From Candidatus Marinacidobacterales bacterium (lineage in GTDB: Bacteria > Acidobacteriota > Vicinamibacteria > Marinacidobacterales > DATDRI01), in the NCBI GenBank assembly GCA_965226495.1, contig OZ245365.1, positions 4,768,001 to 4,832,000 of the forward strand: a DNA stretch of 64,000 nt. The letters are read 5' to 3'. This document shows positions 2,373-42,124 of this stretch, piece after piece. How positions within the stretch are numbered: position 1 is the first letter of the stretch; each line of letters begins with the position of its first letter. The translations under genes were made by a program, and so were the position numbers. The notes beneath the pieces were generated by a model. That model ran no database searches, had not been told where the DNA came from, and saw only the letters and a program-made list of their open reading frames with translations.

Positions 2373-2399
2373 CGCTCTCGGTACCCCTGAGAGAGTCAG

Positions 2400-2462
2400 T
2401 TACTTCTTTTTCTTGCTCGCCTTTTTCTTGGCTGTCTTGGCTTTCTTTCTGCGCTTTGCCAT
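2400..2462 (-). CDS. 20-aa Lys/Arg-rich small protein MAKRRKKAKTAKKKASKKKK
   Basis: ATG..TAA; SD GAGGAGG 8 nt upstream; own terminator and promoter; below the ORF-track cutoff. Confidence 0.75.
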   Translation of the reverse strand: MAKRRKKAKTAKKKASKKKK

Positions 2463-2700
2463 AATTGTCGCCTCCTCTCTATTTAGGGGTTAGGCATTGG
2501 TCGCGACGTACGGCGCGAGCTGAAAAGTGAGCTTTCTTTTCGAAAACTATCATCATTTCAACTTTTGCCATGCGTCTCATGCCTGCCAGCTCCTGGACTC
2601 AAACAAACTGCACGTCGACCCTCCCCAAGACCCCTCATGGACCTCGAGGAAGTCCGAACAACTAGCAGTTGATTGAGCCTGAGCTTGACATACTATATGT

Positions 2701-2729
2701 AGGATAAGGAAGCTCCCGGAACCTGTCAA
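2701..2729 (-). promoter_or_regulatory. sigma70-type promoter for the small basic peptide
   Basis: TTGACA-N17-TATCCT on - strand; inverted repeat GCTTGACA/TGTCAAGC at 2683-2731. Confidence 0.6.
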
Positions 2730-2876
2730 GCATTTTTTGCACCCCGAGAGAATTGCGTCTTTGGATTGAGAGTCTTAGCCGAATGGCGTTTTACGAAACG
2801 AGAAAAAAGCAGTAAAATAGAGGGTTGGGCGAGTCGGATTATTTTTTGGGGATAGAAAAGAGAAAGTCGAGTCCGA

Positions 2877-4010: not shown

Positions 4011-4099
4011 TGGGATCATCTCGATTCTAGCATCTCTTCCATTTCAGGCGGCCCGGTTCGTTCGGGTTCTAAGCCGCCCCCCTTTCCGGAAAGTCCTGA

Positions 4100-11249: not shown

Positions 11250-13196
11250 ATCAGGTAGCGAGGGGCGGTTGCCCACCCCCGGCTCCTACACCACCGTGCG
11301 TACGGTCCGTACACGGCGGTTCAAGAAGAACACGCAAGCCTCCGATGCTCGGCGAGGAAGCTCAAGAGACCGTGAGCGTGCAAATAACGAGTAGGGATGG
11401 CCTGGTTCATGTGAGACGCGCCGGCGTTCCACCACGGACCGTGGCCGTTGAAGGCGGAAACGCTAGCTGGAGCCTCAGCCAAGCCACGCGCCATGAGCCC
11501 TCGCCCGCCGGGTCCAGGGTCGCTTCCACTGCCTCCATAACAAGCAGCGCAGCTTCCGGCGAATCCACTTATCCAGCTCCTCGAAGCTCACACGCACGTC
11601 CGACATCCGAAAATACGCCACCCAACCGCGAATCACCGGGTTGAGTTCCTGGATGACGTGGTCGAGCCGACGGCCGCGACCGCGTCGAAAGACCAGCTTC
11701 AGTTTCTCCTTCAGTCGTTTCACCGACTCCGGAGCCACTTTCAGCCAAGGCGTACGGTTCACCGTGACGCTATACCCCAGAAACTTCCGTCGCCAGGGAC
11801 GCGCCACCGCGCTTTTGTCCCGGTTCACCTTGAGCCGGAGCCGCTCCCACACAAACGTCTCCAGCGATGCCTTCACTCGCTCGCCTGCTCGCTGTGACGC
11901 CACGTACACGTTACAGTCGGCGGCGTAGCGACAGAAGCGATGACCTCGTTTTTCGAGTTCCTTATCTAGCTCGTCGAGCAAGACGTTGCTCAAAAGCGGA
12001 GACAGCGGGCCGCCTTGCGGCGTCCCTTCGCTTCGGGCTGACACCACTCCACCCTCCATCAGACCCGCTTGCAGATACCGGCGAATCAGACGAAGCACCT
12101 GTTTGTCCTTCACCCGTCGCGCGACCCGCAACATCAGAATGTCGTGGTTCACTCGGTCAAAGAACTTTTCCAGGTCCAGATCCACAACCCACCGGTAACC
12201 CGCCGCGACATGAAGCCGCGACCAGCTCACCGCTCCCAGAGCGCTCCGCCCCGGACGGAAGCCGAAGCTCCAGTTCGAGAACGTAGACTCGAAGATCGGG
12301 CTGAGGACCTGAAGCAGGCCTTGTTGGATCATTCGCTCCAACACCGTCGGGATACCCAGCCGGCGCGTTCCTTTCCCTCCCGGCTTCGGTATCTCTACAC
12401 ACCTTACCGGTTGAGGTCGGTACCCACCGCTTCGTATCTCTTCTCGGAGGCGCGGCCAATGCGCCCGACAGTGCGCCATGAGCTCGTCGACGGTCATCCC
12501 GTCGAACCCAGCCGCTCCACCGTTTGCAACTACCCGTTGGTACGCTTTCAGCACGTTCTCTCGGCGAAACACCTCCTCGATGAGCGACCGAGCCTCGGGT
12601 TTGGCTTTCTCTCCACGTGCCGTGAGTGCTTGACGCGCGGGGGTCGTACCCTCAGCGGTTCCGCCGCCTACTTTCCGACTCCGCTCCGGCTTCTCAGCCT
12701 TCTTCTCTACGTCTTCTTCACTCATCGAACGCTTCGAGCCAAATCGGCTCCTCCTGTTAGGCCCTTCACCGCTGTGCGCGGCGGCTACTATGGCCTCGGC
12801 TGACTTCTGCTCCTCCTTCGCTACGCCTCTCAGCGGCGCTAGCCACAACGGCAGATGAGCAGACCTCCCAGGGTAAGGCGCGTGACTTTCTTCCCATACA
12901 CCCGTCGCATTTACGCCCCTTCCGTCCGCATGGCATCGGGCTTCGGGTCTTCATGCCCCCTCGCCCACTTCCAGGACGCCTCTATGCGCTTCGTGTTCCT
13001 CGGACACCGGGAGTTTGCTTACAGCTTCCTTCCCACCTCACCTCGCGGTGACGCGGTTGCTGTTCGGCTAGGGGTTCCTGCCATCGAGACCCCCAGAGGA
13101 CTTCCCTTGCGGGGCACCTCCTAGTCACTTCCCGTTTCGCTTTCGCTCTGCGGTTGACAGCGCCAGTCACGGCGCTGCGCGCCATGCCTGGCGCAC
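11250..13196 (-). mobile_element. Group II intron, class C (IIC), degenerate
   Basis: 5' end GTGCGCC at 13196 immediately after a terminator stem and U-tract; domain V GAACCGCCGTGTACGGACCGTACGCACGGTGGTG; domain VI ending CTACCTGAT at 11250. Confidence 0.92.
11321..12725 (-). pseudogene. ltrA: Group II intron reverse transcriptase/maturase, inactivated
   Basis: RT motifs GIPT, DLEKFFD, GTPQGGPLSPLL; catalytic YADD changed to YAAD; frameshift near 11500 separates the tail LMARGL..NGHGPWWNAGASHMN..ACSS*. Confidence 0.85.
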
Positions 13197-14595: not shown

Positions 14596-16761
14596 ATGAA
14601 CATGATTCGTTTCGAAGACATCCTGGAAAAGGTGCGCTCCTACCAACCGGAAGGAGACCTCGATCTCCTGCGACGCGCCTATGTGTTCTCGGCGCGAGAA
14701 CACCGAGACCAGATGCGGTTGTCCGGCGAGCCCTACTTGGTACACCCGCTGGCGGTGGCGGACATCCTCGCGGACATGAAACTCGATGTGGTCTGTGTGG
14801 CCTGTGGGCTGCTCCACGATGTGGTCGAGGACACACTGACTTCGCTGGATAGCCTCGAAGAACACTTCGGCTCGGAGGCGGCTCATATCATCGATGGACT
14901 AACCAAGCTCGGGAAGATTCAGTTTTCTTCCACCGAGGAGCACCAGGCGGAGAATTTCCGCAAGATGCTGATGGCGATGATCGATGACATTCGCATCATC
15001 CTCATCAAGCTCGCCGATCGACTTCACAACATGCGAACCCTCCAGCACTTGCCGGAGGAAAAACGGCACCGCATCGCCAACGAGACGCTGGAAATCTACG
15101 CGCCGCTGGCGGGCCGGTTAGGCATGGGGCGGATCCGGTCCGAGCTCGAGGATCTCTGCTTCCGCTTCCTCCAGCCCGAGGCATATGGCACCCTGGCCAA
15201 GCGCGTGGAATCGAAACGCAAGTGGACGGAAGGCTTCATCTCCGAAATCAAAAGCATCTTGGAGAAAAAGCTCACCGAGAACGGAATCCCAGCCGAAGTG
15301 AGCGGTCGCATCAAGCGCACCTATAGCGTCTACCAGAAGATGCAGCGCCAGGGCATCGAGCTGGACCAAGTCTATGACCTGGTCGCCCTACGGGTGGTTA
15401 CCGACACCGTGCGCAACTGCTACGGCGCCCTCGGCATCATTCACAATACTTGGCGCCCGGTTCCTGGTCGCATCAAGGACTTCATCGCCATGCCGAGACC
15501 AAACGGCTACCGCTCGCTTCACTCCAGCGTGATTCCTGCCTCCAGCGTTCCCTTCGAGATCCAAATCCGAACACCCGAAATGCACCAGATCGCCGAAGAA
15601 GGCATCGCCGCGCATTGGAAGTACAAGGAAGGCAAACCTCTCGAAGAAGGCGACGTCCGCAATTTCGCCTGGCTCCGCCAAATCATCGAATGGCAGCGGG
15701 AAGTCAAGGATCCGCACGAGTTCCTCAATAGCCTCAAGATCGATCTCTACCCCGAAGACGTCTACTGCTTCACACCCAAGGGTGAAGTGAAGTCGTTCGC
15801 GCGCGGCGCGACCCCCATTGATTTCGCCTACGCCATTCACACCGACGTCGGTCACCAATGTGTCGGCGCTAAAGTCAACGGGAAATTGGTCCCCCTCCGT
15901 TATCGGCTAAAGAATGGCGACATCGTCGAGGTCGTTACCACCGCCGGGCACCGACCCAGCCGCGACTGGTTGTCCTTGGCCGTCACCTCTCGCGCCCGTA
16001 GCAAGATCAAGATTTTCCTCAACACCAACGAGAAGCAGCGCAGCATAGAGATCGGCAAAAAGGTGATGGAGAAGGAAGCTCGCCGCTTCGGCCTGGCCCT
16101 CAAAGGCATCACCGAGTCCGAAGGGTTTCCGGAGCTCCTCAAGGATTACGGGAGTGGTAAGGCCGACGATCTATACGCGGCGGTCGGCTACGGTAAAGTC
16201 TCCCCCCGGCAAGTCATCGCTCGCTTCGTGCCGGCGGAGAAGATGGACAAAAAGGACGGTGCCAGAACCAGCCTCGCCCAGGTCGTACGCCGCGTTCTCC
16301 GCGTTCCGGAAGACAAAATCCTCGTGAGGGGAATCAACGATTTGCTGGTGTTTCGGGCCAAATGCTGCAATCCGATTCCGGGAGAGAAGATTACCGGCTA
16401 CATCACGCGCGGGAAGGGAGTATCGGTCCATTCCGTTAAATGTCCGAACGTGGTCAATCTGTTGTACGATCCGGAACGGAAGATAGAAGTCGAGTGGGAG
16501 CGTGACAGAGAAGCGAGGTACGATGTCACGATCTCGGTGGACGTTGACGACCGACAAGGGATCCTGGCGGATATCACTTCCATCATCGCCAGCAGCAACA
16601 CCGATATCCGAAACATCGAGGCCAAGACCTTCGAGGAGGATCACAAGGGGGCGATCGACGTTACTTTGTCCATCAACAACTTGAAACATCTGGAACGCAT
16701 CACTCGCTCGATTCTATCGGTCCAAGGCGTCCGAGACATCGCACGGCATACTCCCCACTAG
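14596..16761 (+). CDS. relA: Bifunctional (p)ppGpp synthetase/hydrolase (Rel)
   Basis: SGEPYLVHP, intact HD (LHDVVEDT), KLADRLHNMRT, AAHWKYKE, TGS and ACT domains. Confidence 0.95.
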   Translation: MNMIRFEDILEKVRSYQPEGDLDLLRRAYVFSAREHRDQMRLSGEPYLVHPLAVADILADMKLDVVCVACGLLHDVVEDTLTSLDSLEEHFGSEAAHIIDGLTKLGKIQFSSTEEHQAENFRKMLMAMIDDIRIILIKLADRLHNMRTLQHLPEEKRHRIANETLEIYAPLAGRLGMGRIRSELEDLCFRFLQPEAYGTLAKRVESKRKWTEGFISEIKSILEKKLTENGIPAEVSGRIKRTYSVYQKMQRQGIELDQVYDLVALRVVTDTVRNCYGALGIIHNTWRPVPGRIKDFIAMPRPNGYRSLHSSVIPASSVPFEIQIRTPEMHQIAEEGIAAHWKYKEGKPLEEGDVRNFAWLRQIIEWQREVKDPHEFLNSLKIDLYPEDVYCFTPKGEVKSFARGATPIDFAYAIHTDVGHQCVGAKVNGKLVPLRYRLKNGDIVEVVTTAGHRPSRDWLSLAVTSRARSKIKIFLNTNEKQRSIEIGKKVMEKEARRFGLALKGITESEGFPELLKDYGSGKADDLYAAVGYGKVSPRQVIARFVPAEKMDKKDGARTSLAQVVRRVLRVPEDKILVRGINDLLVFRAKCCNPIPGEKITGYITRGKGVSVHSVKCPNVVNLLYDPERKIEVEWERDREARYDVTISVDVDDRQGILADITSIIASSNTDIRNIEAKTFEEDHKGAIDVTLSINNLKHLERITRSILSVQGVRDIARHTPH

Positions 16762-30981: not shown

Positions 30982-31659
30982 GTGACCATTGAGGGGAGAT
31001 CGACATTGATAGTTGCCATTGGCTCCACACGGGGTCCCAAGGTCGAGGCGGTCAGACGCGCACTGTCCATACTCAAGGAGCGATTCCCCGGTTTTTTTCG
31101 AGACGAACTCCGTCTCATCGCGAGGGCCGTACCCTCGGGGACCGCATCTACTCCCCTTTCGACGGCCGAGCTCATGCAAGGCGCCCAAACACGCGCGCAG
31201 GGACTCTTCGAGATTCTCTCCGAAGAGGGAACCGTCCCCAAGCTGTCGATCGGGCTCGAGGGAGGACTACGACGTGAAATCTTTGCGGGACTCGAGGAGC
31301 CGGTGGTTTCGTTAGAGGCATGGGCCTACGTCACCGACGGAGTGAGCGGTTTCTTTGGAAGCAGCGGTTGTTTGCCGCTTCCCGGCGAGCTCGTTCAAGC
31401 GGTGGTCGAACGAGGCGAAGACCTCGGGAACGCGGCAGACAAATTCTACGGCCAACAGGATGTAGCTGGACGGCAAGGAACGTTCGGGGTCCTAACTGCC
31501 GATCTAGTGACACGCGAGGAAGCGTTCGTGCGCGCTCTTCTCCACACCTTGGCCCCCTTCTACAACGCTTCCGCGTACGCAGAACGGGTTACCGAGAAGC
31601 CGACGAAGAAACGTCCGGGGGCATCGCCACAGGCGCCGCCAGCGCCTCACGAAGCTTAG
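30982..31659 (+). CDS. yjjX: Inosine/xanthosine triphosphatase (YjjX/DUF84)
   Basis: GSTRGPKVEAV, VPSG, GAQTRA, IGLEGG, GTFGVLT. Confidence 0.8.
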   Translation: MTIEGRSTLIVAIGSTRGPKVEAVRRALSILKERFPGFFRDELRLIARAVPSGTASTPLSTAELMQGAQTRAQGLFEILSEEGTVPKLSIGLEGGLRREIFAGLEEPVVSLEAWAYVTDGVSGFFGSSGCLPLPGELVQAVVERGEDLGNAADKFYGQQDVAGRQGTFGVLTADLVTREEAFVRALLHTLAPFYNASAYAERVTEKPTKKRPGASPQAPPAPHEA

Positions 31660-31671
31660 GGCCGATCGCAC

Positions 31672-32244
31672 ATGGATGTTGTTCGCTCTCGCACGGGGTG
31701 GATCGAGGTCATCACCGGGAGCATGTTCAGTGGTAAGAGCGAGGAGCTGATCCGCCGCATACGTCGCGCCCAGATCGCTCGGCAACGGGTCCAGGTCTTC
31801 AAACCGAGCATCGATGGCCGCTACAGTCTGGAGCATATCGTCTCCCACAACGACCAGCGACTCGAGGCGGAGCTAGTCCCCAACGCGGATGAAATCGAGA
31901 AACGCCTCGAGCACCGAACCGAGGTCGTTGGCATCGACGAGGCCCAGTTCTTCGATCCCGAACTGGCCAATGTGTGTAACCAATTGGCTAACATGGGCAA
32001 GCGAGTCATCGTCGCTGGCCTCGACCAAGACTACCTAGGCAAGCCCTTCGAACCGATCCCACAGTTACTCGCCATTGCGGAATACATCACCAAGACCTTG
32101 GCCATCTGCATGCGTTGCGGAAACCCTGCGAATCACACCCAGCGACTCGTCACGTCTCACGAGAGAGTCGTGGTCGGCGGCTCGGAGGCCTACGAAGCGC
32201 GCTGTAGACGGTGCTTCGAGCCCGGCCCGGCGAGCGACAACTGA
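31672..32244 (+). CDS. tdk: Thymidine kinase
   Basis: [28 protein letters not shown]. Confidence 0.95.
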
Positions 32245-33308
32245 ACCTTTCGCAGCCCTTCCACCCATAGGTTGGCGCCGAGCACTGCAAGGGTAAGCGC
32301 CCCACCCGGCACGGCGAGCGTCCACCAGTATCGCGTCATCGAAGTGTAGTTCGAGGCCGCGGATGCCAACATGTTTCCCCAACTCGCATTCGGCTCTTGC
32401 ACTCCAAGGCCTAAGAACGAAAGCGTCGCCTCACCCAAAAGGAAATACGGTAGCGTGAGCCCCACCTGCAACAGCAACAGAGGAAGCGTATTCGGAAGGA
32501 TGTGCCGGAAGAAGAGTCGACTCCGGCCGGCCCCAGCGGCGACCGCGGACGTGGCAAATTCGCGCTCTCGCAGCGACAAAACGTGCCCTCGCACAAGTCG
32601 TGAAACACCGCACCAGCCCACGAGCGCCAACGACCCAACCAGAATCAAGGCTGCCCAACCCGGGGCCAGGTCGTCAGGAAAGACGTTTCGGACCGCGAGA
32701 ATCAGATAAAGCGCCGGGAGAGCCATGAAGAGCTCCGTCGACCGCATCAACCATCGATCCCAGACTCCTCCGCCAATAGCCGCCGCGGCTCCCACCAGAG
32801 CGCCCAAGGTCACAGTGAGCAGAACGCCTAAGATCGCGGCGGTCGCACTAACCCTGGCACCATGGAGCACCCTCGACAGTAGGTCTCTTCCCAGAGCGTC
32901 GGTACCCAGGAGATGGGCTCGGCAACCCTGAAATCCGAACAAATGAGTGGACCCATTCTCGTCCGCCACCAGCCAGCGAACCGAGCAGCCTGCGCTCGGA
33001 AGCGAAGGCGGATGGTGGAAGCTCTCCCGATCCTGGGATCGCGGGCTGTAGGGTGCCAAGAAGGAAGCCCCGAGTCCGGCGACCGCGATGACCGAAAGCA
33101 GGGCGATCCCGATGCGGGAACCTCTATCAATGCCGCGGGGCCCCACCCCCACGGCTTGTCCCTTCGCCGGCAAGCGGCTGCAGAACGGCTGAGGGCTCTT
33201 ATTATCAATGCCGCGGGGCCCCACCCCCACGGCTTGTCCCTTCGCCGGCAAGCGGCTGCAGGACGGCTGAGGGCTCTTATTAGCCCACCAACTTGGTTTC
33301 CACAACAT
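32190..33308 (-). CDS. Peptide ABC transporter permease DppC/OppC with in-frame repeat insertion
   Basis: [29 protein letters not shown]; the N-terminus carries two 26-aa repeat units. Confidence 0.85.
33125..33282. repeat. Two tandem 78-bp modules inserted in frame in dppC
   Basis: Units 33125-33202 and 33203-33280 differ at one base; TA at each junction. Confidence 0.9.
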
Positions 33309-33520
33309 TAGTGACTCACTGCGCGCTCACTCCACGTTCGCGCGCTTGCCGCCTCGCTCCTCGCTCGGCGGTCTGTTGTCGGCCCACTCGGGCCGGGCTC
33401 GCTCCCTTATCAATGCGGCGGGGTCCCCACCCCCACCGCCGTCCCTTCGCCGGCAAGCGGCTCCGGGACAGCTGATGGCTCCTCGCGCAAGGTGCAGTGC
33501 GCTCCTTGAGCACCCTGCTA
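33309..33520 (+). mobile_element. MITE-like element between dppB and dppC, TA-flanked
   Basis: Matches 16759-16975 (reverse complement); TA at both ends. Confidence 0.8.
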
Positions 33521-34489
33521 GCCTTCTTCCATTCTGATTCGTGGGTCGGCGGCGCCGGTCAACAGGTCCGCGATCAGATTGCCGAAGAGGATCAAGACCG
33601 ATGCAAGAACCAACACACCGAGCAGCAAGAACGAATCCCGGGCGAGCAATCCGCCGAATGCGAGCCTCCCCATACCCGGCCATCCGACAATCACCTCGAT
33701 GAGAAATGCGCCGTTCAAGAACCGCGCTAGAGAAGCACCCGCGAATGCGATGAGTGGGACCATTGCCGGCCGAAGACCGTAGCGCACGAGTATCTGGCTT
33801 TCGGTAAGACCACGGGAACGCGCCGCCCTCACGAACTCCGAGGGTAGGACTTCGAGTAAAGCGCCTCTAGCCTGCAGAAAGAAAAGAGGGGACATCGAAA
33901 AACTAAGGAGGAGCGCCGGCAACAGCAGATGCCGAGCATGATCCAACACCCGGCTCGACCATGGGAGCTCGAGAGAGCCGGCCATGGAGCCACCACCGGT
34001 TGGAAGCAAACCGGTGGCGGCGGCAATTCCCAAACCACCCACCGCGAGTACCAAAGTGGGAACCGAGACGGCCCCGAGTGCTAGGCCAGCGAGGATTCGA
34101 TCTAGCGATCGTCCCGGACGAACCATCGCGAGAAGGCCGAGCCCCAAACCGACGAGGGACGAAACGACCAAGGCCGTCAGCACGAGCGCAAGCGTATAGA
34201 GGGCGGCCTCGCCCAGGAGCTCCGCTACTGGACGTTGAAACCGCAGAGAGACGCCCAGGTCGCCGCGGACCGCTCCCGTCAGCCACGACAGGTATTGTTC
34301 ATACCAAGGTTTGTCGAGACCGAAGCGGCTCACTAACGCGTCGACCGTCGAGGGAGGGATCCCTGGATCCAGACGCAAGCGATCGACAAACGCGCCGGGC
34401 GCCAGGTGGAGGAGCAGAAACGAGAAGAAGCTCACCCCGAAGAGCAAGGGAATGGCAGCCAGCAATCTCGTGAGCGCCATACGAGCCAC
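33518..34489 (-). CDS. Peptide ABC transporter permease DppB/OppB
   Basis: GLDKPWYEQY, GDLGVS, ARSRGL, WPGMG, ADPRIR. Confidence 0.9.
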   Translation of the reverse strand: MARMALTRLLAAIPLLFGVSFFSFLLLHLAPGAFVDRLRLDPGIPPSTVDALVSRFGLDKPWYEQYLSWLTGAVRGDLGVSLRFQRPVAELLGEAALYTLALVLTALVVSSLVGLGLGLLAMVRPGRSLDRILAGLALGAVSVPTLVLAVGGLGIAAATGLLPTGGGSMAGSLELPWSSRVLDHARHLLLPALLLSFSMSPLFFLQARGALLEVLPSEFVRAARSRGLTESQILVRYGLRPAMVPLIAFAGASLARFLNGAFLIEVIVGWPGMGRLAFGGLLARDSFLLLGVLVLASVLILFGNLIADLLTGAADPRIRMEEG

Positions 34490-34569
34490 GACGCGTCAAG
34501 CCTCGACAACAGGTCGCTTAGGGCGTGGGTAACAAACCCTCATGGGGGCCAGAAGATTCCGCCGCTCGT

Positions 34570-37080
34570 TTATCCCACGCGGCGATCGGTCTTGTCCTCG
34601 GCTCCGAAGAGGCTGGGCTGATGTGCGGTGCGATCGGACTCCTCCGGTCTCCGGCGACGCATCTTTCGACGACTCTTTTGATCGTACATGTTTCTATCCG
34701 CCGCCATGAGCAGCGACTCGAGATCGTCGCCGTCGGCGGAGAAAGCCGCGAGCCCGAGGGATATGCCAACGCTCAACATCTTTCCGATCCCGACGTCGAT
34801 GTCGGATGTCTCCACGACCTCCTGCAGCCGACGGGAGAACTGAACGGCCTGTTCCATCGTGGTTTTTGGCAAGACAGCAATGAACTCGTCCCCGGCATAG
34901 CGGACCAACACGTCACTGTCTCGCATCTCGGCCTTCAGGATGCGTCCCACTTCTTTGAGGAACCGATCCCCGGCATGATGACCGAAACGGTCGTTGACGC
35001 TCTTGAAGTCGTCCAGGTCCAGCTCGATGACGGTGAGCGGCTCGTCGTAGCGTTTGGCTTCCGAAAGGGTCTGCTCGAAGAAAATGTAGAGGAAGCGCGA
35101 GTTCGCCAGACCGGTCAAGCGATCGGTGAAGGCGTCCTCCTGGGTCTCCTCGAAGCGAATGGCGTTGTAGAGCGCGATCGATGAACGGTTGGCGATGATC
35201 TCCATCAACCGCACATGGTCATGCGAATACCGCTCGTTCCCCGACCAATAGAGCGCGATCGTTCCGAGCGGTCGTTCCTCGTGAACCAACGGAGCCAAGA
35301 TGGAGTTGTGGTAGTTCTTTCGGAACTGCTCAGGAAGAAGCATCACGTCCGGACCTGGGTGCACGTTGTAGAGCATACGGTTGTTGGCGGCCACCCAACC
35401 CGCCAATCGGGTCCCGAACTCGATGGACACCTCCTTGAAGGCGTCTGGGTTTTGCCCGGTGATGTGAGCAGGTGTTAGTACTCCCTGGCCATCGTCCACC
35501 AGATAGATGACGAGCGTGCTAAACGGAATGATCTTCTCGATCTTGGATGCAATGATGGTGAGCGTGTCGGGACGGGACAAGGAGTTGCCAATGGTCTGCA
35601 AGATTTCGAATAGAGCAAATACCTCCCGCTGCGGCTCGGAGATAGAGTCGCTAAAAGCGGGTGCCTGAGGCACGCCCACGATGTCCGGCATCCGTTTCCT
35701 GTCTCGATACTCCTTCGGCGCCGCCATCTCCCGCACCGCCAATGTTCCTAGCTGCTCGTCGAGCTCATCTACGATCTCCAGGAATTTGTTGAAGACCCGG
35801 GGATCGAACCGATGTGCTTCCCGTTTCATGGTCGAGATTGCCGTTTCCCGATCCAGGGAGCGGCGGTAGACTCGGCGGGCGGTGAGCGCCTCGTAACAAT
35901 CGGCAACCGACATGATCCGGGAGCCAAACGGGATCTCTTCGCCTTTGAGCCCGTCCGGGTAACCGCTCCCGTCCCAATTCTCGTGATGATGTTTCACATA
36001 GGGAATGACCGGTACCGGAAAGTCGATAGTGGAGAGGATCTGAGCACCCACCGCTGGGTGCGTACTCATCTTCTGGAACTCCCTTTCCGTCAAACGCGTG
36101 GGTTTGTGAAGGATGTACGACGGGATCGAGATCTTGCCCACATCGTGTAACACGGAGGCGAACCAAAGTCCCTCATAAGTCTTATCGTCGACACCCAACG
36201 CGCGCGCCAATGCCAGTGTCAGCAAACGGGTGCGCTGAATATGTGTACTGGTGTGATGCTTGTAGTCAGTATGGAGCTCTAGCGCGTCGATCGAGAGCGC
36301 GAAGGCCTCCGCGGTCTGATAGTAGAGCTGGGTCAGGTCCTCGTACTTCTCGTTGTAGAAATGATGGGCGTAGTAAACCACCAGAAGGATAGGGAGACCG
36401 AGCAGGAAAGCCCAGGGCCCGGCTACTTGATGGAAAAAGAAGATGACGGCTGCCCCGGAAGCGGAAGCGAGAAAGTAAAGGGGAACCAAAGGTAGATTCT
36501 GTCGCCACATGGCCCAGAAGCCACCTCGACCGGTTACCGCCATCATGGCGTGCATCGATGCCGAATTGATGAGGAAGTAGGTTCCAGCCAACAAGACGAC
36601 CGGAGGAATTATTTGATAGGCGCTTGTCAATTCCGGAGGCACGAAGGCGTAATACACATGACCATAGACGAAGGCGAAGATGCCACCTGATGCAGTATTG
36701 AAGATGGCTTGACTGCTCTTCCAGCCTAGGCTCTTGGATCGATGTACCAGCTGCTTCTTCTTGGTCGTGAACCAGTAACCGACCAAGTGAAAGAGGCCGT
36801 TCGCGACGACCCCCGGCGCCACTCCGTAGATCAGGGTGACGGAGAGAATCAAACAGTCGGCGACGGCCATCCAGGTGTTGGTGCGGGGGATTCGAACGAC
36901 CCATTTGGAGCTGAGCGAAGCGACGGCGGTCAGGGCGGCGAGGGATATCCAGTCCTGCCAAGTGTAAACTTGCCGGAGTTGGATGAGATTATGGACGGCC
37001 CAGACGAAAATAGGGACCGCCGCGGCGACGGATGCCGCAATATAAAGTTTGACTCTGGCTGGCCGATTTTGCCAGTCCAA
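34570..37080 (-). CDS. Multi-TM sensor with HD-GYP, GAF and GGDEF (AGDEF) c-di-GMP domains
   Basis: About 7 N-terminal TM segments; LHDVGK, HHENWDGSGYPDGL; GAF; TDRLTGL, DLDDFKSVND, RYAGDEF. Confidence 0.92.
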   Translation of the reverse strand: MDWQNRPARVKLYIAASVAAAVPIFVWAVHNLIQLRQVYTWQDWISLAALTAVASLSSKWVVRIPRTNTWMAVADCLILSVTLIYGVAPGVVANGLFHLVGYWFTTKKKQLVHRSKSLGWKSSQAIFNTASGGIFAFVYGHVYYAFVPPELTSAYQIIPPVVLLAGTYFLINSASMHAMMAVTGRGGFWAMWRQNLPLVPLYFLASASGAAVIFFFHQVAGPWAFLLGLPILLVVYYAHHFYNEKYEDLTQLYYQTAEAFALSIDALELHTDYKHHTSTHIQRTRLLTLALARALGVDDKTYEGLWFASVLHDVGKISIPSYILHKPTRLTEREFQKMSTHPAVGAQILSTIDFPVPVIPYVKHHHENWDGSGYPDGLKGEEIPFGSRIMSVADCYEALTARRVYRRSLDRETAISTMKREAHRFDPRVFNKFLEIVDELDEQLGTLAVREMAAPKEYRDRKRMPDIVGVPQAPAFSDSISEPQREVFALFEILQTIGNSLSRPDTLTIIASKIEKIIPFSTLVIYLVDDGQGVLTPAHITGQNPDAFKEVSIEFGTRLAGWVAANNRMLYNVHPGPDVMLLPEQFRKNYHNSILAPLVHEERPLGTIALYWSGNERYSHDHVRLMEIIANRSSIALYNAIRFEETQEDAFTDRLTGLANSRFLYIFFEQTLSEAKRYDEPLTVIELDLDDFKSVNDRFGHHAGDRFLKEVGRILKAEMRDSDVLVRYAGDEFIAVLPKTTMEQAVQFSRRLQEVVETSDIDVGIGKMLSVGISLGLAAFSADGDDLESLLMAADRNMYDQKSRRKMRRRRPEESDRTAHQPSLFGAEDKTDRRVG

Positions 37081-37220
37081 CTGTGGCTCCCGGTTAGCAG
37101 AAAGAAAAGTCGAGTTAAGAGAGACTTCTATTTAAAAGTCCGATTCGATGACTGCTTTTCTTTTCCCCGTTACCGGGTTCATATTAATGAATGAGAACGG
37201 CGACAGAATGGAGAGAGGCG

Positions 37221-37250
37221 ATAGTAGCACAGCGGTACTGTGCCGGTCAA
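37221..37250 (-). promoter_or_regulatory. Promoter of the HD-GYP/GGDEF gene with a palindrome in the spacer
   Basis: TTGACC-N18-TACTAT with extended TGn; GCACAG-N5-CTGTGC. Confidence 0.55.
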
Positions 37251-37273
37251 GATACTTGGGCGGGAAGCAAGCT

Positions 37274-37297
37274 GGAGGCCGCCGGGGGGCGGCCTCC
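37274..37297 (-). terminator. Strong hairpin downstream of the micro-ORF cluster
   Basis: GGAGGCCGCC-N4-GGCGGCCTCC; no clear U-tract. Confidence 0.45.
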
Positions 37298-37344
37298 CTC
37301 GCAAAGTCAATCAATTCAGGACGATCGGGTAACCAGCTTTTCTT

Positions 37345-37371
37345 CTAGACCCAAAGGATTCCGCGATTCAT
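37345..37371 (-). CDS. Octapeptide MNRGILWV (putative signal peptide)
   Basis: ATG AAT CGC GGA ATC CTT TGG GTC TAG; same GILWV* as 37582-37608; weak SD (ACGGTG). Confidence 0.6.
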   Translation of the reverse strand: MNRGILWV

Positions 37372-37416
37372 GACATACACCGTTTCGGTTAATTGGTTAA
37401 CTTTCGGAGCCGACTA

Positions 37417-37512
37417 TTAGTTCCAAATCATCCCAGCAGCAGGAGCGGTCCGCTCTTCGAGCTCTTCCACGGTTAGTTCAACGATTTCGATGTTGTCGTT
37501 TTGAGTTTCCAT
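37417..37512 (-). CDS. 31-aa precursor-like peptide METQNDNIEIVELTVEELEERTAPAAGMIWN
   Basis: SD-like AAAGGGA, tandem stops TAA TAG, acidic leader with short hydrophobic core. Confidence 0.75.
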   Translation of the reverse strand: METQNDNIEIVELTVEELEERTAPAAGMIWN

Positions 37513-37581
37513 TGTTAGTCCCTTTCTTTCAATTAGTTGCGCCAGATTTAACTGAAAATCAAGAAATAAGCAATTTGAAAA

Positions 37582-37608
37582 CTAAACCCACAAAATTCCC
37601 TTGGTCAT
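37582..37608 (-). CDS. Octapeptide MTKGILWV (putative signal peptide)
   Basis: SD GGAGGTG, then ATG ACC AAG GGA ATT TTG TGG GTT TAG. Confidence 0.65.
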   Translation of the reverse strand: MTKGILWV

Positions 37609-38035
37609 CGGTCACCTCCGTGAGATGCCCGACCTGGAAGGACACGCCGACCGGGCCGGGGATTGGGAAGGAAGCCCCCCTTGGAGGGATCTTCGCTCCC
37701 GGACTGAAAGGTTGAGTTGTTAAGAGGAGTGGTTCGGGTAAGCCAGCGGAAGGGGACTTGTTGGAACTGTCATGAATTCAAATAAAGGTCTTTGAATAAC
37801 TCAAGAACCCTTGGTGCAGCCCCTTTAGACCCACCGAAATTACCTACAAACCCTGCCTCTCGACCTCACCTCCTTGGACACTTAACCCACCGAACTTACA
37901 ACTCGAAACGTCTGCTATTTCTTGGACTTTTACTCTACGGTGGGAAAATACTCCGAGCACACCCGACAGTCAGTGACCGGGATCACCAAAGAGAAAATAT
38001 GGGATTTTCCCCCCGTTTTTCGGTTGTACCCTAAA

Positions 38036-39775
38036 TCACCTTATTAAGTAAAGTGCTTCGCTGTTCCAGAGGGTAGGGTGCCAGAAGGGCGTCGGCTCGA
38101 GGTTCCCGAGCCGGACGGTGGTACCCACCAAGGCGTGCGGCACGACCAGATCGATGACGGGGAGCTCTTCGACCACCAAGGCCTGCAGCTCGTCGATCAA
38201 TCCTTTGCGAGCTTCGTATTCGACCGCCATCATCTGCTGCTCCATCAGCTCGTCCAATCGCGCTTCCCATACAGAGGCGGGTTGCGACTGAGAGGGATGC
38301 CATACGTGCAAGGGCGAATGGCTGAGCCAAAGAGGCCTCTGCGTGGACGGATCGGGATCGGTAAAGCTAATCCCGAAGAGGCATGCCTGGTAGTCGAATG
38401 TACGCGTGATTCGGCTTATTAGGGTGGCGAAATCGAGCGAAACGAGGCTCATTTCGACCCCGATCCGCGCGAGGTCTTCTTGGATGAGCGTGGCCGTCTT
38501 CACGCGGGAGGGGTTGTTGGCGTTGGTGAGGAGCGTGAACCGCACGCGTTCTCCCCTTGGACCCACAAGCACTTCTCTCTCCTCGGTGAAGCCGGCCTGC
38601 GCCAGCAGTTCTCGAGCACGCTGCGGATCGTAGGGCGGAGGAGCGATAGACTCGTTCCACCACCGTCGGTTTGCCGAGGTGATGGGGCCGGCCGCCGGAG
38701 AAGCCAAACCCGCGTAGACGGCCTTCACGATGGATTGCCGGTCGATGGCCAGGGAAATGGCCCTTCGGAAGCGTCGATCGGTGAACCACGCTCGTTGCTC
38801 GGGCGACACCGAGCTCTCCGGGTTGAGATTGAACCAGATGCGCTCGGGAGTCGTCCCAGGGCCCAGATCGATGAGGCGCCGATCCGGAGCATCCTTCTCC
38901 CTGAAGCTGATGAAGTCCTCCGGCGGCAAGGGACTCAGAAGGTCGAGCTCCCCAGAGCCGAAGCGAAGCGCCAGAGCGTTCGCATCGGATAGGATTTCGA
39001 AAGTGATTCCGTCCAAATAAGGAAGCTGCTCTCCGTCCGGTCCGTACTTCCAGTAGTTGGGGTTGCGGCGGAGAACCACTCTCTGGCCAGGCACATACCG
39101 CTCGAGGACGAACGGGCCTAGACCTACGATCCCCTCAGAAACCCCGATTCCGTATTCGGATGCGAAGCTCCCATCCTCGAGCGAGGCTTGGAGCCTATGT
39201 CGAGGCAGGACCGGAATGCTATCGAAGATCCTCTCCACCACCGCGGTACGACGGGGTAGTCGGAACCGAACTGTTAACGGATCGACGACCTCTGGAACCA
39301 GAGGCTTCCCTTCGACCATCGCCGTTTCGACGAGCGGACTCGCCACTGCAGGATCATGCAAAGCCTGAAATGTGAACGCGACATCTGCAGCGGTCAGAGG
39401 CGTGCCATCTGAAAAACGGACATCGGGCCGGAGCTTGAAAGTCAGCTCCCGACTGTCCTCAGAGAAGGACCACGATTCGGCGAGCTCGGGCTCGAGCTCC
39501 TGCGTCAGCCGATTGACCCTTAGCAGAGCGGCGTGCAGACGCTCGGTAATTTGGTGGCTCACTTCATCGGTCGCAAGAAGTCGGTTCCAAGTCTGCGGCT
39601 CGCTGCGAATCCCCACTCGCAGCATGCCGCCGGCGACCGGGGTGCCGGGGATGGACGAATCCCCTTGGACCGCCTCCTCCTCCGTCAAACGGCACTGAGG
39701 GGCGATGAAGAGCGCCATGGTGGCGAGCGCAAGGGGCAAGGTAGATGCGCGTGACATCCACGTCATTGGGCCCAA
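38036..39775 (-). CDS. Peptide ABC transporter substrate-binding protein (family 5)
   Basis: Signal/lipobox-like APQC; PELAESW, VRFSDGTPLTAADV, GLGPF, NPNYW, FRRAISLAIDR. Confidence 0.92.
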   Translation of the reverse strand: MGPMTWMSRASTLPLALATMALFIAPQCRLTEEEAVQGDSSIPGTPVAGGMLRVGIRSEPQTWNRLLATDEVSHQITERLHAALLRVNRLTQELEPELAESWSFSEDSRELTFKLRPDVRFSDGTPLTAADVAFTFQALHDPAVASPLVETAMVEGKPLVPEVVDPLTVRFRLPRRTAVVERIFDSIPVLPRHRLQASLEDGSFASEYGIGVSEGIVGLGPFVLERYVPGQRVVLRRNPNYWKYGPDGEQLPYLDGITFEILSDANALALRFGSGELDLLSPLPPEDFISFREKDAPDRRLIDLGPGTTPERIWFNLNPESSVSPEQRAWFTDRRFRRAISLAIDRQSIVKAVYAGLASPAAGPITSANRRWWNESIAPPPYDPQRARELLAQAGFTEEREVLVGPRGERVRFTLLTNANNPSRVKTATLIQEDLARIGVEMSLVSLDFATLISRITRTFDYQACLFGISFTDPDPSTQRPLWLSHSPLHVWHPSQSQPASVWEARLDELMEQQMMAVEYEARKGLIDELQALVVEELPVIDLVVPHALVGTTVRLGNLEPTPFWHPTLWNSEALYLIR

Positions 39776-39918
39776 CCTTTCGTTGATGACTGTTTACGGA
39801 ACGTTACATTCTCCAATAATGAATACTGAATAGCCAGAGGTTTCCGTGGCGACGGTTACAGTCCCCAAGATCTTGCGGGGAAGCCCGATAGTGAGCTAAG
39901 GTTAACTGAATTCAAGAC

Positions 39919-40782
39919 TTGGACTTGCGGACGAAAACCCTCTCGGAATCAGAAGCGGTGGACATCCTGTTAAACACTCTAAACATCAGTCTTCCGACGC
40001 TTTACGCCTTAGCATGGGCCGATTACGCCCTGTTGTTCTTTCGCAACGACGCCTTCGCCGAGAAGACGGCCCCATGGCTGCTCAGGCTGGCCGCAATTCT
40101 GCACGGCATTTACCTCGTCCTGCTGGAGGCTCACCAACCGCACTTTCCAGTGGCAACGGTCTTCGAGGCTTTTTCACTTTTGGCGCTCTCGGTCTTGGTC
40201 GTCTATCTGTTCATCGAATCCCGCATTGGCGTCCGCACCACCGGTTTTTTCATCGTGGGCCTGGTCTTCGCGTTTCAGCTGGTGTCCTCGGCCTTTATCA
40301 CCCGTCCGACCGAAATCAATCCGCTACTCGCGGAGCCTTCGTTCGTCCTACACGCTGCGACCGCCGTGCTGGGTTACTCGGGGATGGCGATTTCAGCCAT
40401 CTATGGTCTGCTCTACTTGATGCTCTTCCATGACATCAAGAAGAACCGCTTCGGACTCATCTACAAACAACTCCCCTCTTTGGAAGTCATGGCGAACTTC
40501 ACCTACCGAGCGGCCACGTTGGGGTTCATCTTCCTGACTGTGGCCATGGCGCTGGGGTTGGCATTGATCGCCAAAATCGACCAGCCGGGATGGACATGGG
40601 ATCCGAAGTTGATCATTACCTTTGTGGCTTGGCTCATCTACGGTGCGTGCACCGTGGGCCGCAAGTTCTGGGGTTGGTCGCCGCGTCGAGTGGCCTTCGC
40701 GTCGTTGACCGGTTTCGCCGTCATTTTGTTCTCGTTCGTGGTCGTGAACCTTCTCTTCACGTCGTTTCACGGATTCGTCTGA
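39919..40782 (+). CDS. ccsA: Cytochrome c assembly protein (CcsA/HemX-like)
   Basis: Eight TM segments, LPSLE, WTWDPK, C-terminal FH; directly upstream of hemA. Confidence 0.8.
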   Translation: MDLRTKTLSESEAVDILLNTLNISLPTLYALAWADYALLFFRNDAFAEKTAPWLLRLAAILHGIYLVLLEAHQPHFPVATVFEAFSLLALSVLVVYLFIESRIGVRTTGFFIVGLVFAFQLVSSAFITRPTEINPLLAEPSFVLHAATAVLGYSGMAISAIYGLLYLMLFHDIKKNRFGLIYKQLPSLEVMANFTYRAATLGFIFLTVAMALGLALIAKIDQPGWTWDPKLIITFVAWLIYGACTVGRKFWGWSPRRVAFASLTGFAVILFSFVVVNLLFTSFHGFV

Positions 40783-40783
40783 C

Positions 40784-42124
40784 ATGAACCTTCTCGTTGT
40801 TGGAATGAACCACCGCACCGCTCCGATCGATGTACGGGAGCAGGTAGCCTTCAGCGACATCGAAGTACGGGACATCCTCTCGCGAACCCGTTCCGAGCAA
40901 ACGCTCGGCGAAATGCTGGTTCTCTCCACATGCAATCGAACCGAGTTCTACGGGCTTTCCAGGGACAACGGAGCGGCGGAGATGTACATCCGGAACCTCA
41001 TCGTCCGGCAGAAGCAAGTAGATTTGGCGTCTCATCCCGGCTATGCCTACACGCTTTCGGATGTCGAGTCGGCACGCCATCTGATACGGGTAGCCACCGG
41101 CTTGGACTCGATGCTCCTCGGCGAGCCGCAGATCCTCGGCCAAGTGAAGCAAGCCCACCAGCTATCCGTGGAGTCCGGCGCCTGCGGGCTCGTCCTGAAT
41201 CGCCTCCTGCAAGCTGCGATCATCGCGGGGAAGAGGGTCCGCACCGAGACGCGTCTCGGGGGAGGGGCGGTTTCGGTAGCGAGCGCCGCCTCCGAGCTCG
41301 CCGGCAAGATCTTCCGGGATCTTTCGACCCGCTCGGTTCTACTCATCGGAGCCGGGGAAATGGGTGAGCTCACGGCTCGCCACATGTTGGAACGAGGAGT
41401 ATCCGATCTCACCATCGCCAACCGAACGTTCAGCAAAGCGCTCGAGCTTTCGCGCGAGCTCGAGGGAAAGGCGCTTCCCCTGAACCGTGTCGAAGAGGCA
41501 CTCGGTTCCGCCGACATCGTCATCAGCTCTACCGGAGCCAGCGAACCCATCATTAGCGAAGCGCAGATGAGGGCTATCGTATCCAAGCGGTCCGGGAGGC
41601 CGATCTACATCATCGATATCGCCGTGCCTCGCGACTTCGAGCCACGAATAGAACGGCTCGACGGAGTCTTCCTTCACAATTTGGACTCGATGAATCTTTT
41701 GGTGGAAAAGGGCCTCGAGGAACGACGCGGCGAGATTCCCAAGGCGGAAGTGATCGTAGAGGAAGAATTAGAAGGGTTCCTGAATTGGCGAGACTCCCTT
41801 GCGGCCACCCCCACGATCAAACAACTCAAGGAAAAATTTGAGGAAATCCGTCGTCAGGAGGTGGCTCGCTACCGCGGCCGCTTCTGCGACGAGGATCAAG
41901 AGCAGTTGGACCGGCTGACGGAAGGTTTGATGAAGAAGATCATTCATCCCGCAATGGGCAGGATTCGAGATTGGAGCGGAAAGGAAGAGTTGGGAGCCCT
42001 CCGCATCGACACGATCTACGAGCTATTCGAATTGCCCCGCCGGCCCGGACAGCCCGGACAGCCCGGACAGGACGACCTCGCCCAACCTGAGCAAGACGCC
42101 GGGGACGAGGAGTCTCAAGGGTGA
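40784..42124 (+). CDS. hemA: Glutamyl-tRNA reductase
   Basis: LSTCNRTE, GLDSMLLGEPQILGQ, GAGEMG, DIAVPRD. Confidence 0.96.
   Translation: MNLLVVGMNHRTAPIDVREQVAFSDIEVRDILSRTRSEQTLGEMLVLSTCNRTEFYGLSRDNGAAEMYIRNLIVRQKQVDLASHPGYAYTLSDVESARHLIRVATGLDSMLLGEPQILGQVKQAHQLSVESGACGLVLNRLLQAAIIAGKRVRTETRLGGGAVSVASAASELAGKIFRDLSTRSVLLIGAGEMGELTARHMLERGVSDLTIANRTFSKALELSRELEGKALPLNRVEEALGSADIVISSTGASEPIISEAQMRAIVSKRSGRPIYIIDIAVPRDFEPRIERLDGVFLHNLDSMNLLVEKGLEERRGEIPKAEVIVEEELEGFLNWRDSLAATPTIKQLKEKFEEIRRQEVARYRGRFCDEDQEQLDRLTEGLMKKIIHPAMGRIRDWSGKEELGALRIDTIYELFELPRRPGQPGQPGQDDLAQPEQDAGDEESQG

Follow-up and report, generated by a model that had tools for sequence, protein, structure and literature searches.

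On the minus strand of the genome of an uncultured acidobacterium of the 'Candidatus Marinacidobacterales' there is a block of genes that looks like a peptide-sensing switch of an undescribed kind. It occupies positions 32190..39775 of a 64,000-nucleotide stretch of contig OZ245365.1 (assembly GCA_965226495.1, positions 4,768,001 to 4,832,000), which as a whole is called the window and to which all coordinates refer unless another locus is named. Four protein genes are encoded in the block, which are a family-5 (Opp/Dpp/Nik-type) substrate-binding protein, an 836-aa membrane-bound sensor with the HD-GYP, GAF and GGDEF domains of a cyclic di-GMP (c-di-GMP) enzyme, and the permeases DppB and DppC. 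The gap of 955 nucleotides (nt) between the binding protein and the sensor contains three small open reading frames (ORFs) ending in G-x-x-W-x, two of which are micro-ORFs and one of which encodes a 31-aa peptide. As the motifs of these small genes are unique to the locus in this genome and recur in relatives, the features of the locus are beyond chance, and its best reading is that of a lineage-specific signalling module of uncultured Vicinamibacteria-type Acidobacteria from soil and sediment. We tentatively favour, with a confidence that stays somewhat short of an even chance, that hydrophobic peptides made by the locus are captured by the binding protein and control the c-di-GMP enzyme; whatever goes beyond gene anatomy, conservation and association is what we infer from these. 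The first-pass annotation of this DNA had already proposed a peptide signal that is read out through c-di-GMP, an interpretation that is partly supported as a whole, and the elements it named (binding protein, three GxxW micro-ORFs, HD-GYP/GAF/GGDEF sensor, dppB and dppC, all on the minus strand) were confirmed by Pfam and ORF analysis.

Two kinds of small genes

Micro-ORF A (37582..37608, minus strand) encodes MTKGILWV followed by a stop codon and is preceded by the Shine-Dalgarno sequence GGAGGTG at 37613-37619, and micro-ORF B (37345..37371, minus strand), which encodes MNRGILWV and a stop, is a second copy that occurs only in family f1, the window's own family. The two copies differ synonymously (ATT/ATC, TTG/CTT, GTT/GTC), and in the whole 6.3-Mb genome the motif occurs exactly these two times. 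Micro-ORFs of the form M-x(1-2)-G-[IV]-[LV]-W-[VIA]-stop, with 7-8 codons, are present at 17 of 18 genome loci and at 19 of 20 metagenome loci, the genome loci having 22 of them owing to the second copy in f1. Within these 22 micro-ORFs, Gly is encoded by four codons and Leu by five, and the stops are TAG in 8, TAA in 3 and TGA in 11 cases. The search pattern limited which residues could appear at all, but the alignment of the intergenic regions (A3) does not depend on the pattern, and also there the variation sits at third codon positions. In most loci, a ribosome-binding site of the GGAGG type precedes the first copy by 5-9 nt; it is weakest in L034 (GGAGA) and L022 (GGAGC).

The peptide gene (37417..37512, minus strand) encodes METQNDNIEIVELTVEELEERTAPAAGMIWN, in which a short hydrophobic tail comes after an acidic leader, and the combination of leader motif and short tail occurs only once in the 6.3-Mb genome, which is at this locus. 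The leader is conserved in relatives, and an ORF with ..[IV]-V-E-L-x-[VI]-E-E-L-E-E-R-x-A-P was found in 17 of 17 intergenic regions, with no in-frame ATG in L021 and a frameshift in L022. In a block of 17 leader codons, for which there are 32 distinct nucleotide versions, all 17 third positions vary, and the mean entropy at codon positions 1, 2 and 3 is 0.50, 0.30 and 1.21, respectively. Judged by these codon patterns, the micro-ORFs and the 30-mer gene must be real genes that are selected at the level of the peptide. A collection of 5.8 billion proteins, searched with the natural 44-aa frame of L060 that contains the peptide, has 45 clusters of such peptides including the query; 44 of them were retrieved, 35 are exactly 30 aa long, and all are at most called 'hypothetical protein'. 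Among 1.84 billion cluster representatives, a profile of the peptide matched 41 proteins at E <=0.001, 7 of these at E <=1e-10.

An alignment of 33 peptides shows an acidic stretch of 24 residues at the N-terminus (M-D/E-N-x-Q-E-V-Q-E-I-V-E-L-T-V-E-E-L-E-E-R-T-A-P), which is invariant from E9 to P24, VEELEERTAP included. The tail behind the proline consists of Gly and four to five hydrophobic residues and is variable (GLVVVW, GMIVVL, GIIIGL, GLIYAG, GTIINI and others). When tails and sensor membrane domains were compared at the 28 loci having both a full membrane domain and a tail, the tail was identical in 27 of 27 pairs with membrane domains at least 90% identical, in 12 of 28 pairs at 85-90% identity, and in 0 of 323 pairs below 85%. 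By this comparison, the tail follows the lineage and evolves much faster than the leader, and it does not switch among near-identical strains. The earlier description of the products as Trp-containing peptides holds for the 7-8-aa ORFs, in which the Trp is invariant, but not for the 30-aa family, which has no conserved Trp and whose tail is simply hydrophobic, although the tail does carry a Trp in the window's own family. In L032 the stop of the micro-ORF is gone, and the frame continues through the 30-mer to a fused product of 63 aa (MQGILWVYNF...APGLVVVWIPYP); the database protein P0002 has the same fusion; the genome of L032 (G034) also has a TAG within the sensor frame.

Conservation of the neighbourhood

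A scan of 185,579 species, each represented by one genome, gave 18 loci with the membrane domain of the sensor, in records of uncultured Acidobacteriota, of Vicinamibacteria, or of 'Candidatus Marinacidobacterales'. Of 40 relatives, 24 belong to families f1 and f2, and 21 of these have sensor matches of at least 57% identity over full or partial length (G001, G022 and G040 have domain-level matches only); in the 16 genomes of family f3 there is no match. Family f3 is too distant to tell a gain of the block from a loss: of five genomes, none had a match to thymidine kinase and one had a match to hemA, at 29% identity.

The neighbourhoods in 18 relatives were compared by mapping the window's proteins onto them; one of the loci, L038, is from the unpublished genome G007 and contributes to the counts without any claim resting on it alone. 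The order binding protein, intergenic region (0.4-3.8 kb) and sensor is kept in 16 of the 18, so that the conservation that had been named as a check of the first-pass annotation was indeed found, and in 12 of the 18 also dppB and dppC follow the sensor. L036 and L037 have only remnants. In the 18-kb stretches of L027, L030, L031 and L032, dppBC was not found, while an intact binding protein, the peptide region and the sensor are kept. The constant core, as far as these neighbourhoods tell, is the binding protein, the micro-ORF, the 30-mer and the sensor, with the permeases optional, and as four lineages keep this core where dppBC was not found, the transporter is dispensable for whatever the core does. 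In the widened intergenic region of G002, an IS1595-type zinc-ribbon ORF was seen (L021 11159-11611).

Metagenomes give the same picture. A degenerate leader pattern matched 41 metagenome contigs, 21 of which are true small-peptide loci, whereas the remaining 20 are chance matches inside long GC-rich frames. Counting only true loci with enough flanking DNA, the binding protein lies upstream on the same strand in 16 of 17, the sensor downstream in 15 of 16, and the micro-ORF 120-170 nt upstream of the peptide gene in 19 of 20 (once with a GTG start). The single exception in all three counts is L088, where a divergent peptide MNTLHVEDLILEVEELEERTAPQLIWDDGGDPN (..LILEVEELEERTAPQLIWDDGGDPN) is encoded at 1964-2089 on the minus strand, back to back with a divergent sensor at 2242-4026 on the plus strand. 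This sensor is a MASE9-like HD-GYP/GAF membrane protein of the same build (32% identity). Behind the peptide gene lies one for a secreted repeat protein, and the 4-kb stretch showed neither a match to the binding protein nor any other long ORF.

The sensor

The sensor (34570..37080, minus strand) consists of a multi-pass MASE9-like domain (residues 1-241), an HD-GYP domain (272-429), a GAF domain (501-637) and a GGDEF domain (650-807), with Pfam matches to HD_5/HD-GYP (E 4.8e-41), GAF_2 (E 1.7e-11) and GGDEF (E 8.4e-41). In the approximately 240 hydrophobic N-terminal residues, hydropathy finds six blocks, two of which are long enough for two spans each, which results in about eight segments and not in the seven or so transmembrane helices counted initially. 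By the same crude measure, the longest loop of this domain has 23 residues, and the loops without Lys or Arg have at most 7. The most conserved loops are rich in these residues, RWVVRIPRT and the stretch 102-124 with six of them, which fits a location on the cytoplasmic side. The assignment to MASE9, suggested beforehand as a possibility, stands as a weak likeness: a match to the Pfam profile (PF20972) at E <=1 is found in 10 of 12 orthologues, the best at 7.7e-4, but the window's own sensor reaches only 17.8-19.9 bits and stays below the cut-off of 24.3. In the paper that defined MASE9, the architecture MASE9-HD-GYP-GAF-GGDEF is listed, and Galperin and Chou propose there that these domains bind ligands inside the membrane, with no ligand described in the part of the paper drawn on here (10.1101/2021.11.05.467447). 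The short loops of the sensor would fit such an intramembrane binding.

The HD and HHENWDGSGYP motifs are invariant in 12 of 12 orthologues except for one Ser/Thr change, and the nearest solved chains are HD-GYP phosphodiesterases. The GGDEF motif reads RYAGDEF in all 12, with an RxxD site five residues before it. One AGDEF enzyme has been reported as active (PMC3974145) and another AGDEF domain has been called degenerate (10.64898/2026.03.20.713172), and hence a cyclase activity of the sensor may go either way. Across families f1 and f2 the sensor is 64-89% identical, and between the families the membrane domain reaches 44-47% versus 64-66% for the whole protein. At the C-terminus (34570-34650), QPSLF followed by acidic residues is near-invariant in the 12 orthologues (one has R for P) and could be a docking or degradation tag. 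A second large protein with a GGDEF domain, of GAF-GAF-GGDEF build, is encoded elsewhere in the window (55493-58075, plus strand), as are a RelA/SpoT enzyme (14596-16761, plus strand) and a group II intron reverse transcriptase/maturase (11475-12848, minus strand).

The binding protein and the transporter genes

The binding protein (38036..39775, minus strand, 579 aa; Pfam SBP_bac_5, E 4e-86) begins with a hydrophobic signal ending in Cys, as do the orthologues that were inspected, and it is probably a lipoprotein outside the cytoplasmic membrane. A form of 492 aa, 100% identical, is listed as the window's own protein, but as the orthologues align from near residue 2 and the longer form has the signal with its Cys, the start of the shorter form looks wrong. 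The closest solved relatives of the binding protein are AppA (1xoc), SPH1118 and Lmo0135 (E around 1e-34), and NCBIfam equivalog matches are all far below their cut-offs.

Co-folding of residues 45-579 (alignment of 103 rows) with the 31-mer (33 rows) resulted in ipSAE values of 0.54, 0.51 and 0.54, the best of three controls reaching 0.01, and the runs share at least 56% of their contacts. The mark that is passed here was reached by 116 of 157 solved complexes and by 2 of 215 mismatched pairs in the calibration, but only 18 of the 157 pass at ipSAE values of 0.60 or lower, and both passing mismatches lie in that range. Of the co-folding check that the first-pass annotation had proposed, there is thus a pass at 0.51-0.54, but a weak one with a pLDDT of 35-37 for the partner, and the models lend weak support to a binding of the peptide.

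The sensor gene is followed after 80 nt by the DppB/OppB-type permease (33518..34489, minus strand, 323 aa) and then by the DppC/OppC-type permease (32190..33308, minus strand, listed with 372 aa), both with the BPD_transp_1 domain and with Opp/Nik-type NCBIfam matches that are all below the cut-offs. Between dppB and dppC there are three copies of a dispersed 78-nt repeat (33125-33202, 33203-33280, 33408-33485), and the first 61 residues of the listed dppC frame are a translation of this repeat (a 25-residue string, twice). Twelve dppC relatives align from residues between 13 and 136, seven of them from residue 60 onward, and the true start is probably near residue 62. The repeat is also found near genome positions 808244 and 4110616, and translated copies match elsewhere in the genome.

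No ATPase of the oligo_HPY type was found in the cluster or in the window, as had been noted before for the cluster, but the absence is not special to this cluster: four of the five dppBC pairs of the genome have no adjacent ATPase, so that this is typical of the genome. There are four oligo_HPY ATPase genes in the genome that form two dppDF-type pairs, at 4.112 and 4.471 Mb, and the pair at 4.112 Mb is an orphan: tblastn gave no match to the cluster's dppB in its vicinity, and the short match to dppC some 1.3 kb away stems from the repeat element. With four of five pairs lacking an ATPase and an orphan dppDF pair in the genome, the idea was rejected that permeases without an ATPase beside them do not transport.

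Predicted transcription units and RNA evidence

The order of elements in the intergenic region was deduced from an alignment of 11 regions together with pattern counts. Directly 3' of the stop codon of the binding protein gene, a hairpin with a T-run (37999..38016; terminator scan), the position of which is kept at the start of alignment A3, is likely its terminator. Then follow a palindrome, a hexamer, a leader of about 330 nt, micro-ORF A, the 30-mer gene with its own AAGGAG, in family f1 micro-ORF B, a GC-rich hairpin, the sensor promoter and the 5' untranslated region of the sensor. The palindrome GTGATCCCGGTCAC (GTGA-N6-TCAC; 37973..37986, minus strand) is a candidate site for a regulator of the CRP/FNR family, and 16 of the 17 intergenic regions have it in the form GTGAY-N4-RTCAC. 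A TAnnnT hexamer follows at a distance of exactly 22 nt, over an unconserved spacer, in 27 of 28 distinct sequences, and in the window the -10-like hexamer is TATTTT (37945..37950, minus strand; from the alignment and the spacing pattern), with the palindrome centre 29.5 nt upstream of its first base. If this hexamer occupies -12 to -7, the palindrome would be centred at -41.5 of a start that is predicted from sequence only, and class II CRP/FNR-dependent promoters have a TGTGA-N6-TCACA palindrome centred near -41.5. At least three Crp-family regulators are encoded in the genome, and the palindrome is not enriched genome-wide (29 sites versus about 21 expected), with only three sites having the promoter geometry.

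Within the leader, a block AAGGAGGTG (37867..37875, minus strand) is invariant in alignments A3 and A4; it lies about 250 nt before micro-ORF A and has no conserved start codon after it. The GC-rich hairpin GGGAGGCCGCC..GGCGGCCTCC (37274..37298, minus strand) is likely the terminator of the peptide unit, as its position is kept and its arms covary, with GGAGACC/GGTCTCC in most loci and GGACGGAGGC/GCCTCCGTCC in L029. It is followed by a sigma-70-type promoter of the sensor operon (37221..37250, minus strand; TTGACC, 18 nt, TACTAT with a TG before it; promoter scan), and TTG[AC][CT]..TGnTAnnnT with a spacing of 17 or 18 is found in 17 of 17 intergenic regions. The binding protein, the peptides, and the sensor with dppBC would accordingly be three separate transcription units.

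Twenty public runs from seven studies contain the window stretch or a part of it, two of them metatranscriptomes of one study, the contigs of which were compared over 31600-40800. Three of these contigs (37244-37440, 37495-37796 and 37604-37950) are identical to the window and jointly span nearly the whole predicted peptide unit, which is a hint that the unit is expressed but no proof: the contigs give no strand, transcript ends or level, DNA contamination of RNA libraries is possible, and the contig end at 37950 cannot be read as a transcription start. The other RNA-library pieces are one in ccsA and two short ones in the 78-nt repeats, loose-ended contigs that presumably stem from other copies of the repeat. 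The genes of the binding protein, the sensor and DppB have no such cover, a lack that proves nothing.

Proposed mechanism and alternatives

In the mechanism that we favour, a small unit with an activator-dependent promoter of the CRP/FNR type would give rise to two kinds of ribosomal peptides. The first would be a leaderless 7-8-mer M-x-G-I-L-W-V, and the second a 30-mer with the invariant acidic leader (..IVELTVEELEERTAP) and the variable hydrophobic tail of five to six residues, which would be freed, probably by cleavage after the Pro. The free peptide would then be caught outside the cytoplasmic membrane by the lipoprotein-like binding protein encoded upstream, and the bound peptide would act on the neighbouring MASE9-like/HD-GYP/GAF/GGDEF enzyme. 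As this enzyme has no periplasmic domain, the signal would have to reach it by intramembrane access, by DppBC import with the orphan DppDF, or by sensing of the working (loaded) transporter. The outcome would be a shift between c-di-GMP hydrolysis by the HD-GYP domain, the motifs of which are intact, and synthesis by the AGDEF domain with its I-site. A more specific version, in which the micro-peptides are dedicated ligands of the MASE9-type enzyme, the heptamer staying in the producer and the tail of the 30-mer being released and recaptured by the binding protein, is possible but doubtful.

Several observations weigh against a peptide-controlled enzyme. No signal peptide, exporter or processing protease for the peptides was found in the locus, and for the YcaO next to the peptide gene in genome G038 (see below), the search of the remaining 23 f1 and f2 genomes gave no match and that of f3 only weak ones of 27-32% identity. 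The ligand cannot be named by homology, as the solved relatives of the binding protein, at E 1e-34 and weaker, are distant and bind oligopeptides, pectin fragments, glutathione, haem, nickel or opines, and as peptide complexes of this family are common among solved structures, the pass in co-folding may reflect likeness only. G003 has an intact sensor next to a truncated binding protein, a frameshifted peptide gene and a dppC that a Mutator-family transposase interrupts (L022 5433-6743). Of 401 Acidobacteriota genomes, 48 encode distant homologues of the membrane domain, and at 0 of 29 such MASE9-like loci was a peptide gene found within 1.5 kb. The flanks, with ccsA and hemA on one side and thymidine kinase on the other, are syntenic too, and as these housekeeping genes are equally syntenic, the adjacency is partly inherited and weak evidence for a functional link. 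Finally, a cis-acting leader peptide would account just as well for the Trp-x-stop with which the micro-ORFs strictly end. The single C39-type (C39-peptidase) transporter of the genome and its three PqqD-like genes sit away from the locus.

Such a cis-acting role of the 7-8-codon ORFs is unlikely overall. Pausing or failed termination at G-I-L-W-V-stop, perhaps triggered by a small molecule, would set how much of the 30-mer RNA is made or translated; the heptapeptide would then have no function in trans, and this could coexist with a trans-acting 30-mer. The Trp lies two codons before the stop in 22 of 22 genome and in 19 metagenome micro-ORFs, residue 2 varies while GILWV is fixed, and micro-ORF A with its strong Shine-Dalgarno sequence sits 65-110 nt before the next ORF; TnaC-type termination arrest is a precedent for a cis-acting leader peptide with a Trp. 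On the other hand, all three stop codons are used, so that no single release factor is implied, and micro-ORF B lies past the peptide gene, 46 nt before the terminator hairpin and too far away for masking by a stalled ribosome. A search for conserved RNA structure near the micro-ORF and downstream of it found none, although the alignments were poor: consensus folding of the 300-nt leader and of the surroundings of micro-ORF A gave 0 pairs, and single-sequence folds of the stretch from micro-ORF to peptide had no common shape. The only Rfam match in 36900-38200 at E <=1 is at chance level (asX1, 23 bits versus 70), so that there is no known riboswitch. Moreover, the pattern of Gly, two hydrophobic residues and Trp also ends the 30-mer in the window's family, which points to a peptide product that both have in common.

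It is quite unlikely that the 30-mer is instead the precursor of a secreted, bacteriocin-like product of the class of peptides that ribosomes make and that are modified after translation (RiPPs), with the binding protein and DppBC serving re-uptake or self-protection and the enzyme being a mere neighbour. An invariant leader in front of a variable core, as in the 30-mer, would fit this, and in G038 a YcaO gene and a gene for a 565-aa TfuA-domain protein lie on the same strand between the terminator hairpin of the peptide unit and the sensor promoter (L028 4642-7649). YcaO-TfuA pairs thioamidate peptide backbones (PMC8120280), and the placement suggests that the 30-mer is handled as a precursor in G038; yet with a YcaO in only 1 of the 24 f1 and f2 genomes, the modification is not part of the general system. 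Longer metagenomic proteins with weaker profile matches (P0190, P0191, P0194, P0197 and P0202; E 6e-5 to 1e-3) repeat the unit ..V-E-E-L-E-E-x-[IT]-A-P-[GA]-hydrophobic.. together with NHNETLV two to four times, like multi-core precursors, and E-E-L-E-E-x-x-A-P may mark a recognition or cleavage signal. Their clusters are unnamed, and a degenerate pattern for them found nothing in 401 Acidobacteriota genomes. Among the named clusters of the ESM Atlas, precursors of lantibiotics (0.77) and of ComC (0.75) come nearest; as neither reaches 0.9, they are leads only. The matches of the binding protein include the chain 5icq of MbnE, a family-5 binding protein for a RiPP. Against a RiPP, the 64-kb window has no modifying enzyme next to the precursor, no exporter and no immunity gene, an all-aliphatic core of five residues offers little chemistry, and the sensor is the most constant neighbour, also beside the divergent peptide of L088.

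Very unlikely is a purely intracellular role, in which the 30-mer, an acidic strand or helix with a greasy tail, and the heptamer stay in the cell and bind the cytoplasmic face of the sensor (its basic loops or the GAF domain) as allosteric regulators, with their level set by the CRP-type promoter. The K/R-rich conserved loops, the lack of a signal peptide or exporter in the locus, the cytoplasmic product that a leaderless ORF yields directly and the peptide unit's own regulated promoter would all be compatible with this, but the constant extracytoplasmic binding protein would be left without a role, and an invariant leader with a variable tail is rather what processed and exported peptides typically have.

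The least probable reading is plain synteny with no functional link, an old block in which a transporter for nutrient peptides, a c-di-GMP enzyme and small genes of unrelated function happen to lie together. For it speak the equally syntenic flanking genes, the three separate transcription units and the independent decay of parts in G003, G016 and G018. Against it, the peptide genes are found nowhere else in the genome, have both neighbours in all metagenome loci but one, lie in that one (L088) in divergent form again beside a sensor of the MASE9-like type, and remain together with binding protein and sensor where dppBC was not found.

Comparison with known systems

Proteins with the architecture MASE9-HD-GYP-GAF-GGDEF share with the sensor the domain order and a multi-pass membrane domain with very short outer loops, and for these proteins no ligand, partner protein or neighbouring peptide gene is described in the portion of the defining paper considered here (10.1101/2021.11.05.467447). 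The N-terminal domain of the window's protein differs from them in staying below the Pfam cut-off for MASE9. NspS-MbaA of Vibrio cholerae and PruR-DcpA of Agrobacterium are alike in that a binding-protein gene lies beside a membrane enzyme that makes or breaks c-di-GMP; there an external ligand, a polyamine or a pterin, sets the direction of GGDEF-EAL enzymes (PMC8967002, PMC8079147, PMC11194511). In contrast, the enzyme of the window is of the HD-GYP/GGDEF type, its binding protein is a family-5 protein of the peptide type, and the candidate ligand is encoded in the locus itself. Sensors of the NspS-MbaA type dock the binding protein on a periplasmic domain, whereas the window's enzyme has no loop of more than 23 residues for such a docking.

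In the Rgg/SHP, ComRS and RRNPP systems of Firmicutes, a precursor gene lies beside the receptor gene, the active part is short, hydrophobic and C-terminal, and Opp serves the import. Similarly, there is here a small peptide gene close to the gene of the candidate receptor, a hydrophobic C-terminal piece, and a binding protein with permeases of the Opp/Dpp type. What an importer of that type consists of is present as far as the family-5 binding protein and two BPD_transp_1 permeases are concerned, while the ATPase pair encoded with the permeases is absent from the window. Unlike in Rgg/SHP and RRNPP systems, the host is a diderm, the leader is acidic and has neither a secretion signal nor a basic-hydrophobic N-terminus, an extra leaderless gene of 7-8 codons is present, and the candidate receptor is a membrane c-di-GMP enzyme and not a cytoplasmic TPR or Rgg regulator; regulators of these types were found by Pfam neither in the neighbouring protein nor in 46 further ORFs of the window that were scanned.

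With TnaC-type leaders the micro-ORFs share the very short frame, the strong ribosome-binding site, the invariant Trp near the stop and the position upstream of an ORF, but the window's family uses three stops, its motif also ends the 30-mer, a second copy lies downstream, and a conserved RNA switch of this type was not found near the micro-ORFs in the (poor) alignments. YcaO-TfuA RiPPs likewise have a short precursor with leader and core, and in G038 the YcaO and TfuA genes follow directly on the same strand; they differ in that such enzymes are present in 1 of 24 f1 and f2 genomes, and even in G038 they lie beyond the terminator hairpin of the peptide unit.

The signals are unknown for the sensor domains of most c-di-GMP enzymes, and peptide signalling between cells is textbook knowledge for Firmicutes, but to our knowledge hardly any of it is known from the Acidobacteria, a soil phylum that is abundant and poorly cultured. 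The locus supplies candidate ligands that can be synthesized (the heptamers and the tails of five to six residues), a candidate co-receptor and a defined promoter, and is thus directly testable, and it illustrates that genes of 7-8 codons, which are invisible to gene callers, can rank among the most conserved elements of a locus. In open-access papers and preprints on MASE9, on c-di-GMP together with binding protein, peptide or HD-GYP, and on signalling peptides of Acidobacteria, the arrangement was not described. Known already are the domain order of the sensor, c-di-GMP enzymes coupled to binding proteins for polyamines or pterins, and Opp-linked pheromones in Firmicutes. What would be new is the combination, in which a diderm phylum would have a MASE9-like c-di-GMP enzyme with peptide genes wired to it, one gene being leader-bearing and its neighbour coding for a leaderless heptamer, and an activator-type promoter in front of them. 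If the version with dedicated peptide ligands is true, a peptide-to-c-di-GMP circuit would be known for the first time from a diderm phylum, a MASE9 domain would for the first time have its ligand assigned, and the CRP-type activator would close a loop from nucleotide to peptide and back to nucleotide.

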